Part shown: positions 1-29,414 of the stretch, in pieces
Layout of the letters: each line of letters opens with the position of its first letter
Position numbering within the stretch: the stretch's first letter is position 1
Source: Escherichia coli
GTDB lineage: Bacteria > Pseudomonadota > Gammaproteobacteria > Enterobacterales > Enterobacteriaceae
Length of the DNA stretch: 64,000 nucleotides
Assembly (NCBI RefSeq): GCF_003334315.1
Contig: NZ_QOWR01000007.1
Direction: 5' to 3' (one strand)
The notes under the pieces: model-generated
Seen by the model: the letters and a program-made list of their open reading frames with translations, nothing else
The model's database searches: none
Told to the model about the DNA's origin: nothing
Position numbers and translations under genes: made by a program

Positions 1-59
1 ATCGAACCAAGGACACGGGGATTTTCAATCCCCTGCTCTACCGACTGAGCTATCCGGGC
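1..59 (-). tRNA. pheU: tRNA-Phe (GAA), 5' 59 nt only; 3' end lies beyond the left window edge
   Basis: Reverse complement of 1-59 reads GCCCGGATAGCTCAGTCGGTAGAGCAGGGGATTGAAAATCCCCGTGTCCTTGGTTCGAT, the canonical E. coli tRNA-Phe with GAA anticodon; truncated by the window boundary. Confidence 0.85.
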
Positions 60-13688: not shown

Positions 13689-13739
13689 TGCGGTTGTGGT
13701 GCGGCCTGCAGGCTGCACCATCACTTATTCAGGTCAGAG

Positions 13740-13865
13740 ATGATGAAACGCCTTATCGTTCTTGTTTTGCTTGCCAGCACGCTGCTCACGGGCTGTAACA
13801 CCGCTCGCGGTTTCGGCGAAGACATCAAACATCTCGGCAACTCCATCTCCCGCGCTGCCAGCTAA
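13740..13865 (+). CDS. ecnA: Entericidin A lipoprotein (antidote), 41 aa
   Basis: Hand-translated: [41 protein letters not shown]; lipobox LTGC; below the ORF-track size cutoff. Confidence 0.85.
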
Positions 13866-13975
13866 TTTTTCTTCTCTTCCGAAAAATCATCAGATTTCCA
13901 TCATTTTTGGTGATGTTGTCTATTATTAATTTGCTATAGGCAAACATAAATAACATTACCTAAAAGGAAGACGTT

Positions 13976-14122
13976 ATGGTGAAGAAGACAATTGCAGCGA
14001 TCTTTTCTGTTCTGGTGCTTTCAACAGTATTAACTGCCTGCAACACCACGCGTGGCGTTGGTGAAGACATTTCTGATGGCGGTAACGCGATTTCTGGCGC
14101 AGCAACGAAAGCGCAGCAATAA
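13976..14122 (+). CDS. ecnB: Entericidin B bacteriolytic lipoprotein, 48 aa
   Basis: Hand-translated: [48 protein letters not shown]; AAGGAAG Shine-Dalgarno 6 nt upstream; paralogous to ecnA. Confidence 0.85.
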
Positions 14123-14234
14123 GCAATAACGGTACGACAGCTGTGTCGTGCCGTTTGTTTTTTCTGTGATAGTCATAAAGGTAATAGTTGAAATTCCCCT
14201 GCCACCTGGCAAAATATCCGTTCAACCATCAGCT

Positions 14235-14279
14235 TTGCAGGACGACCTGCAAACGCCTCTTTTCACCGGGGACGGCCCC
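14235..14279 (+). ncRNA. Guanidine-II riboswitch (mini-ykkC) in the gdx/sugE leader
   Basis: Two GC-stem hairpins each capped by an ACGR tetraloop: GCAGG-ACGA-CCTGC (14237-14250) and GGGG-ACGG-CCCC (14268-14279), 17 nt apart and 19 nt upstream of the gdx start; the defining mini-ykkC architecture. Confidence 0.7.
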
Positions 14280-14297
14280 AATTCTCCGGAGCCTGAT

Positions 14298-14615
14298 ATG
14301 TCCTGGATTATCTTAGTTATTGCTGGTCTGCTGGAAGTGGTATGGGCCGTTGGCCTGAAATATACCCACGGCTTTAGTCGTTTGACGCCGAGTGTTATTA
14401 CTGTGACGGCGATGATTGTCAGTATGGCGCTACTTGCCTGGGCGATGAAATCGTTACCAGTAGGGACGGCTTATGCCGTGTGGACGGGTATTGGCGCAGT
14501 CGGCGCGGCCATCACCGGCATTGTACTGCTCGGTGAGTCCGCTAACCCGATGCGCCTGGCGAGTCTGGCGTTAATCGTATTGGGGATTATTGGTCTGAAA
14601 CTCAGCACTCAATAA
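14298..14615 (+). CDS. gdx: Guanidinium exporter Gdx / SugE, SMR family (105 aa)
   Basis: ORF 14148-14615 trimmed to ATG 14298 ([26 protein letters not shown]...); four-helix SMR protein; the upstream in-frame extension is occupied by the riboswitch. Confidence 0.93.
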
Positions 14616-15145
14616 CTACCGGGCTGCTGTACCCAAATAAACTTACTGACATCAAACCCTTCCCGGGTCGCGACTGCCAGCATCTCCTGTTTCACTTCGT
14701 CAGAAATGGTTGGCGTGCGGGAGAGTATCCACAGGTAGTCGCGGTCCGGGCCGCAAACCAGCGCATGGCGGTATTCCCGATCGAGTGCAATAACGTTATA
14801 ACCGCCATAGAAAGGACCAAAGAATGACACTTTCAGCGCAGCGCGAGTTGGTGCGCCGGTAAAGTACGCTTTCCCTTCACTCTGCTGCCACATTCCTCTG
14901 TCAGGGTTATAGCCTTTATTAATGACATTCAGGCCGCCGTCATCACGCAGGCTGTATGTTGCGGTGACTTTTTCCAGTCCACGTTCAAAGCGGTGATCAA
15001 AACGGGCAATCTCATACCAGGTACCGAGATAGCGTTTAGCGTCGAAATTATTCACTACGGTCACGCCACGCGGCGGCGTAGGAGAACTGCAGGCAACGAC
15101 CAGAAATGCAGCTGTCGCTGCGGCAACGAGAGGGAGCAGGCGCAT
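14609..15145 (-). CDS. blc: Outer-membrane lipocalin Blc (178 aa)
   Basis: [50 protein letters not shown]..., lipobox VVAC and lipocalin GTWYEIA motif; 3' end overlaps the gdx stop by 7 nt (convergent). Confidence 0.93.

Positions 15146-29226: not shown

Positions 29227-29302
<76 letters not shown>

Positions 29303-29338: not shown

Positions 29339-29414
<76 letters not shown>

Follow-up and report, generated by a model that had tools for sequence, protein, structure and literature searches.

The leader of gdx (sugE) in Escherichia coli raises two questions: whether the two small hairpins that stand in it form a guanidine-II (mini-ykkC) riboswitch, as had been proposed from the letters alone (the sequence-only reading), and, if so, which nucleotides withhold the ribosome-binding site (RBS) of gdx in the OFF state. 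We addressed both in a 64,000-nucleotide stretch of E. coli DNA (the window, contig NZ_QOWR01000007.1; all coordinates are positions in it). The element is almost certainly the E. coli guanidine-II riboswitch, probably acting as a translational ON switch for the exporter Gdx. As a discovery it matters little, being a textbook riboswitch that is already characterized; its interest lies in the fact that a very small riboswitch could be recognized from raw sequence, and in the identity of the strand that sequesters the Shine–Dalgarno (SD) sequence in the OFF state, which is the sole point with some novelty.

The gdx locus and its leader

Here gdx occupies its native site on the E. coli chromosome. 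The genes lie in the order epmB–efp–ecnA–ecnB–gdx(sugE)–blc–ampC, and the segment 13950–14700 was found in 5,426 of 5,426 complete E. coli genomes, with 100% identity to strain 203740. Judged from its sequence, the product of gdx is an SMR-family guanidinium/H+ antiporter and the SugE/Gdx equivalog, in agreement with the sequence-only reading, which had named the downstream gene as an SMR guanidinium exporter. It matches NCBIfam NF008512 (SugE equivalog) over its full length (193.5 bits; cutoff, 126), and comparison with the PDB places it nearer to the solved Gdx (chains 6wk5/6wk8, the nearest structures, E = 1.4e-32) than to EmrE (E = 2e-10). All records listed name the protein ‘quaternary ammonium compound efflux SMR transporter SugE’. 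The RefSeq/PGAP tables of NZ_CP043213.1 and NZ_CM132950.1 carry no riboswitch or regulatory feature at 14234–14280; for an element that has been validated, this is a gap in annotation and not counter-evidence, and it leaves the element unannotated in RefSeq/PGAP beside a Gdx that is still named as a quaternary-ammonium efflux pump. Elsewhere in the window, Rfam matched an RpsF leader at 61792–61876 (110 bits), a pair of identical tRNA genes at 29227–29299 and 29339–29411 (40 nt apart), and a tRNA gene at 1–59 (minus strand) that is cut by the window edge.

The coding sequence of ecnB ends at 14122 and is followed by an intrinsic terminator that ends the upstream transcription unit; gdx therefore needs its own promoter. 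A consensus scan found a single promoter-like site in the region, at 14188–14215, and in an alignment of eight enterobacterial species both of its hexamers are conserved while the flanks diverge. Transcription from this putative promoter would start at approximately 14221–14224, so that the gdx mRNA probably begins roughly 10 nt before the first hairpin (P1) and carries a short leader. The features of the region, all on the plus strand, are as follows.

14128–14165, plus strand: intrinsic terminator of ecnB, a strong hairpin with a 12-bp stem at 14128–14155 and then a T-run (terminator scan).
14188–14215, plus strand: putative sigma-70 promoter of gdx, with −35 TTGAAA at 14188–14193, a 16-nt spacer and a TG-extended −10 CAAAAT at 14210–14215 (consensus scan).
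14234–14253, plus strand: P1 hairpin, an 8-bp stem UUUGCAGG/CCUGCAAA with an ACGA tetraloop (sequence, Rfam alignment); 5′ arm 14234–14241, loop 14242–14245, 3′ arm 14246–14253.
14254–14267, plus strand: linker CGCCUCUUUUCACC, 14 nt (sequence).
14268–14279, plus strand: P2 hairpin, a 4-bp stem GGGG/CCCC with an ACGG tetraloop (sequence, Rfam alignment); GGGG 14268–14271, ACGG 14272–14275, CCCC 14276–14279.
14288–14291, plus strand: Shine–Dalgarno sequence GGAG, 6 nt before the start codon (sequence; marked as SD in Fig. 1 of PMC13064478).
14298–14615, plus strand: gdx (sugE), the regulated gene, 105 amino acids (RefSeq WP_000118482.1).

Both of the hairpins that the sequence-only reading had described, GCAGG-ACGA-CCTGC and GGGG-ACGG-CCCC, are present. 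Its 5-bp P1 (14237–14250) is the inner part of the 8-bp stem, its 17-nt gap is the stretch between that shorter P1 and P2 (14251–14267), and its 19 nt to the start codon is correct as an offset, with 18 nt intervening between P2 and the ATG at 14298. The GGAG of the SD begins 8 nt past P2, and an SD of the form GGAG or GGGA is conserved across enteric leaders. Both loops are closed by a G–C pair within a GGACGRCC octamer (GGACGACC at 14240–14247 in P1 and GGACGGCC at 14270–14277 in P2); the P1 loop is the first guanidinium-binding loop and the P2 loop is the second.

Membership in the guanidine-II class

The element has been in Rfam since mini-ykkC was described. A covariance-model scan, the check that the sequence-only reading had itself put forward, matched RF01068 (Guanidine-II) to 14234–14280 on the plus strand at 50.4 bits against a gathering threshold of 32, covering model positions 1–48 of 48, with E-values of 5e-7 for the whole window and 8e-9 locally. 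A permissive Rfam scan of 13700–14700 on both strands (E ≤ 1) returned no competing RNA family besides RF01068. The mini-ykkC/guanidine-II identity proposed from the letters thus stands above the curated threshold at these coordinates, and the element is conserved, with compensatory changes in its stems, before gdx homologues of many Proteobacteria.

Recognized by eye, the twin-hairpin motif is only weakly significant alone. The window contains three GGACGRCC octamers where 3.4 are expected, and when the window was shuffled 300 times with its dinucleotides preserved, paired ACGR hairpins (stems 4 bp or longer, about 60 nt or less from each other) arose in 31 of the shuffles. Because the octamer is not enriched and twin hairpins appear in about 10% of shuffled 64-kb windows, a frequency that would suit a chance origin, motif counting was dropped as evidence. 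What places the element above chance is the score of the covariance model together with its position before gdx and the conservation, with covariation, of orthologous leaders.

This comparison drew on 80 loci that encode Gdx relatives, with one genome per species scanned. Of the 80 loci, 45 had a Guanidine-II match, which in 44 stood immediately before the gene; among the 20 closest loci, 19 had upstream sequence, and each of these 19 had a match. No other riboswitch class, guanidine-I, -III and -IV included, reached its gathering threshold in the 80 loci. The remaining 35 loci, one of which is truncated (L011), had no Rfam match of any family at the gathering threshold. The 44 homologue leaders and that of the window made up a set of 45, in which the distance from loop to loop is 29–39 nt and that from the end of P2 to the start codon 13–66 nt (median 20). 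The stems were aligned by their loops and without gaps, because they abut invariant tetraloops. In all 45 leaders the A, C and G of the loop and the G–C pair that closes it are unchanged, 91.8% of the cells of the alignment are standard pairs, and changes on both sides that preserve pairing occur in 10 of 13 stem pairs (7 of 8 for P1). The covariation score was 0.645 against 0.18 for shuffled alignments, with none of 500 shuffles reaching 0.645, and it fell to at most 0.25 when registers were slid by 1–3 columns. When 20 Enterobacterales leaders that included the start codon were folded with RNAalifold, P1 and P2 emerged independently, with 6 of the 8 P1 pairs compensatory. The linker, by contrast with these stems and loops, varies in length and sequence among orthologues, and its sequence is poorly conserved.

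Three further observations came from the same leaders. In the RNAalifold consensus of the 20 enteric leaders, GGA of the SD (14288–14290) forms a weak 3-bp helix with UCC of codon 2 (14301–14303); its significance is doubtful, because covariation is near zero and the codon is constrained by a conserved Met-Ser-Trp N terminus. In Mesorhizobium ephedrae (L064:245–289), a distance of about 900 nt separates the Guanidine-II match from the gdx homologue downstream, a different open reading frame comes next after the match, and this riboswitch seems to head an operon in which another gene comes first. Eight other Mesorhizobium leaders (L050, L051, L057, L065, L067, L069, L071 and L074) have 40–66 nt from P2 to the start and, within this distance, extra palindromic segments such as GGATCGGATCC; their sequences point to a longer and different expression platform from that of enteric leaders.

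A second way of doing without a riboswitch is to read the hairpins as codons of a Gdx with a longer N terminus, and an open frame is indeed there: a mechanical open reading frame, 14148–14615, starts with GTG, encodes 155 amino acids and runs into gdx. RefSeq nevertheless places the Gdx start at 14298, and the protein read from there aligns with the 104-position SugE profile beginning at its first residue. In orthologues the P1-to-start distance changes without keeping the frame, and 12 of the 45 leaders contain an in-frame stop. Neither in spacing nor in freedom from stops is the extension (14148–14297) conserved, and it is therefore not coding, as the sequence-only reading had cautioned. Covariance-model score, covariation, out-of-frame spacing and leader stops together refute both the chance and the extended-coding readings, to which we attach practically no probability.

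The element was already known, and its E. coli sequence is a model system of guanidine-II structural biology; reviews list E. coli as a host of the class (for example, PMC12186494). The leader (14177–14305) is identical to that of a K-12-lineage genome, with upstream differences only at 14167 and 14176, both before the promoter hexamers, and A14 and G44 of the published 49-mer would be 14245 and 14275 if that construct starts at 14232. Given the K-12-identical leader and the mapping of the 49-mer numbering, the NMR/SAXS, smFRET and crystal data concern the RNA of the window. In the E. coli 49-mer, guanidinium binding and a P1–P2 loop–loop complex were seen by NMR and SAXS, and the ACGG loop of P2 was the weaker binding site by NMR (PMC9300104). 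The smFRET study used a 47-mer from upstream of E. coli sugE and cites 5NDI as the crystal structure of an E. coli P1 homodimer (PMC9094411); smFRET and crystallography, too, have been reported to show ligand binding and the ligand-dependent complex for this sequence.

Genetic data exist for the same leader. In the Cs+-resistant strain ZX-1, 20 bp are deleted; the deletion is given as AGAATTGGGGCCGTCCCCGG (PMC13064478), the reverse complement of which, CCGGGGACGGCCCCAATTCT, is window 14266–14285, that is, P2 plus its flanks. ZX-1 expresses gdx constitutively, as read out by RNA-seq with n = 1 per condition, and its parent becomes Cs+-resistant in a gdx-dependent manner when guanidinium is supplied (PMC13064478). 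For E. coli that tolerates ionic liquids, a review cites riboswitch mutations by which gdx is upregulated (PMC12186494). Ligand binding, the loop–loop complex, guanidinium induction and de-repression without P2 thus come from the work of others on the same sequence; family membership, covariation, conservation and position are the part established in the present analysis. From sequence and fold models we infer the SD-sequestering nucleotides, the transcription start and a control that would be mainly translational rather than one of mRNA stability. All doubts concern the expression platform, and the riboswitch assignment is uncontradicted.

Among complete E. coli genomes, the 90-nt leader is present at a minimum of 95% identity in 5,407 of 5,426 (at least 80% of the query covered). 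A natural 29-nt deletion corresponding to window 14255–14283 was found in the clinical urine isolate E. coli strain 167 (NZ_CM132950.1; L082:1839–1840), in the one partial match examined; linker and P2 are lost, P1, SD and gdx are intact, and the deletion resembles that of ZX-1.

The strand that sequesters the Shine–Dalgarno sequence

In the mechanism that we propose, P1 would be stably folded without ligand, the 4-bp P2 would be only marginally stable and the RBS would be partly sequestered. The SD region GGAGCC would pair with the loop and 3′ arm of P2 (GGCCCC), and GGGAC of P2 with GUCCU at the start codon. The ligand-bound half of this scheme follows the accepted mechanism, by which guanidinium binding makes the two loops kiss and exposes the SD. 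As guanidinium accumulates, one cation occupies each ACGR loop and the loops pair through their C and G residues into a kissing complex; P2 would thereby be locked as a hairpin, the SD and AUG would be free, Gdx would be translated and guanidinium exported.

Models of the free RNA agree with several of these steps. P1 has a pairing probability of 0.73–1.0 in the free ensemble, and P2 forms with a probability of 0.01–0.32 overall. In transcript models ending at 14310–14345, P1 is always formed and P2 has a probability of 0.08–0.32. In these same folds, GGC 14274–14276 pairs with GCC 14291–14293, CC 14278–14279 with GG 14288–14289, and GGGAC 14269–14273 with GUCCU 14300–14304. We therefore propose, tentatively and with slightly less than even confidence, that the P2 loop and 3′ arm, and not the linker, are the anti-SD in E. 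coli, P2 being both sensor and sequestor; guanidinium would then tip a competition between the P2 hairpin and a P2:RBS pairing.

The published alternative concerns the same riboswitch and differs in the OFF state: an anti-SD in the linker, CCUCU at 14256–14260, pairs with GGAG, and the kissing complex separates linker and SD. It has been stated for the E. coli element as ‘putative’ (PMC9300104, PMC9094411). The placement follows, by analogy, what Reiss and Strobel proposed for P. aeruginosa (PMC5558903), and CUCU of the linker can form four pairs with GGAG, one of them G–U. Against this, the linker takes at most 0.12 of the six possible GGAGCC pairs in every fold model, the best linker:RBS duplex (−3.5 kcal/mol) is weaker than 87% of shuffles, and the poor conservation of the linker sequence does not suit an anti-SD. 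ZX-1 keeps CGCCUCUUUUCA and loses P2 yet is constitutively ON, where a linker repressor that needs P2 for its release would be expected to lock the gene OFF. Sequestration by P2 would explain the constitutive ON state of ZX-1, because the deletion removes P2 and keeps the linker. We regard the linker as a rather unlikely sequestor. For strain 167, in which linker and P2 are both lost, constitutive ON expression of gdx is predicted.

Opening energies of the RBS point the same way, with effects that are small and vary with the transcript model. In 11 of 12 comparisons the free wild-type RNA had the highest opening energy; it fell by 0.3–1.4 kcal/mol when P1 and P2 were locked, and usually fell similarly, by up to 2.9 kcal/mol, in the deletion RNAs of ZX-1 and strain 167. 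For the window sequence, the gain in RBS accessibility was 0.85 kcal/mol, which does not exceed the value for shuffled tails (0.76 kcal/mol), and 33% of shuffles reach 0.85. Across the family, locking the aptamer opens the RBS by 1.95 kcal/mol in the models versus 0.55 kcal/mol with shuffled tails (p = 7e-5), which supports a general ON-switch logic. In the longest transcript model, which ends at 14370, coding sequence is the main partner of the SD, so the gain predicted for the window depends on where the transcript ends.

Simpler measures gave no clear answer. The probability that the SD is unpaired was 0.26 in the free RNA, 0.27 in the bound-like RNA and 0.16 in the deletion RNA, which does not separate the three. 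In the 45 leaders, complementarity of the RBS to the 3′ half of P2 did not exceed that expected from composition (p = 0.14), and duplexes of the RBS with either half of P2 (3′ or 5′), with the linker or with the P1 3′ arm had energies that were in no case significantly better than those of shuffles. The purine of the P2 loop is associated with the base that follows GGAG (Fisher p = 0.006), an association that is phylogenetically confounded and holds in only 9 of 26 ACGA leaders; it carries no weight in our reading.

Control could also act mainly on the abundance of the mRNA, through Rho-dependent or intrinsic premature termination or through access of RNase E. The ZX-1 phenotype was, after all, seen as raised gdx mRNA by RNA-seq (PMC13064478), for guanidine-III, control of RNase E access in addition to translation has been reported (PMC9094411, PMC12186494), and a terminator scan flagged P1 followed by CGCCUCUUUU as terminator-like. 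An intrinsic terminator is nonetheless unlikely, with CGCC standing between the P1 stem and the U-run, four consecutive U residues and no conservation of the run in orthologous linkers. A further argument against mRNA-level control is the 8-nt distance from P2 to the SD, an arrangement shared with the class members that act on translation. Raised mRNA is, moreover, an expected secondary effect of better translation. Control mainly through mRNA abundance is thus improbable in our estimate; since the ZX-1 read-out is RNA-seq with a single replicate per condition, part of the control of gdx may act at this level. As a terminator candidate in its own right, P1 with its U-run (CUCUUUU) was rejected, the run being apart from the stem and unconserved.

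Mobile copies and related systems

A Citrobacter-type riboswitch–gdx unit lies beside blc (lipocalin) on 677 PLSDB plasmids (at least 95% identity), of which 656 are predicted to be conjugative. Their hosts are mainly Escherichia, Salmonella and Klebsiella; Providencia p8538-NDM-1 (L007:1138–1515) is an example. From these sequences, the riboswitch travels with the mobilized gdx gene, and plasmid carriage of riboswitch-controlled gdx is already in the literature (PMC12186494). The strand that sequesters the SD bears on guanidine-inducible tolerance (caesium, ionic liquids) and on these 677 riboswitch–gdx plasmids.

Compared with known systems, the element is closest to the E. coli sugE/gdx representative of RF01068, with which it shares aptamer, loops, linker length, SD position and gene, and from which its aptamer does not differ. 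The plasmid-borne Citrobacter-type blc–sugE module likewise has a guanidine-II aptamer (47.2 bits) directly before gdx, with a P1 identical to that of E. coli and the same P2 hairpin and loops; its Gdx is 82% identical to that of the window, which is the native chromosomal copy. Guanidine-I (ykkC), -III and -IV share the ligand and the gene classes (Gdx exporters, guanidine carboxylase) and differ in having unrelated folds, with I and IV transcriptional and III a pseudoknot (PMC9094411, PMC12186494); none of the three had a match in the window at the Rfam gathering threshold. The guanidine-II riboswitch of P. aeruginosa has in common with the E. coli element two ACGR hairpins before a SugE-family gene, a probable translational ON switch, and a loop–loop dimer with one guanidinium per loop (PMC5558903). 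The two part at the expression platform: for P. aeruginosa the proposed partners of the SD are the linker and the 5′ strand of P1 (PMC5558903), whereas in the E. coli fold models it pairs with the loop and 3′ arm of P2.
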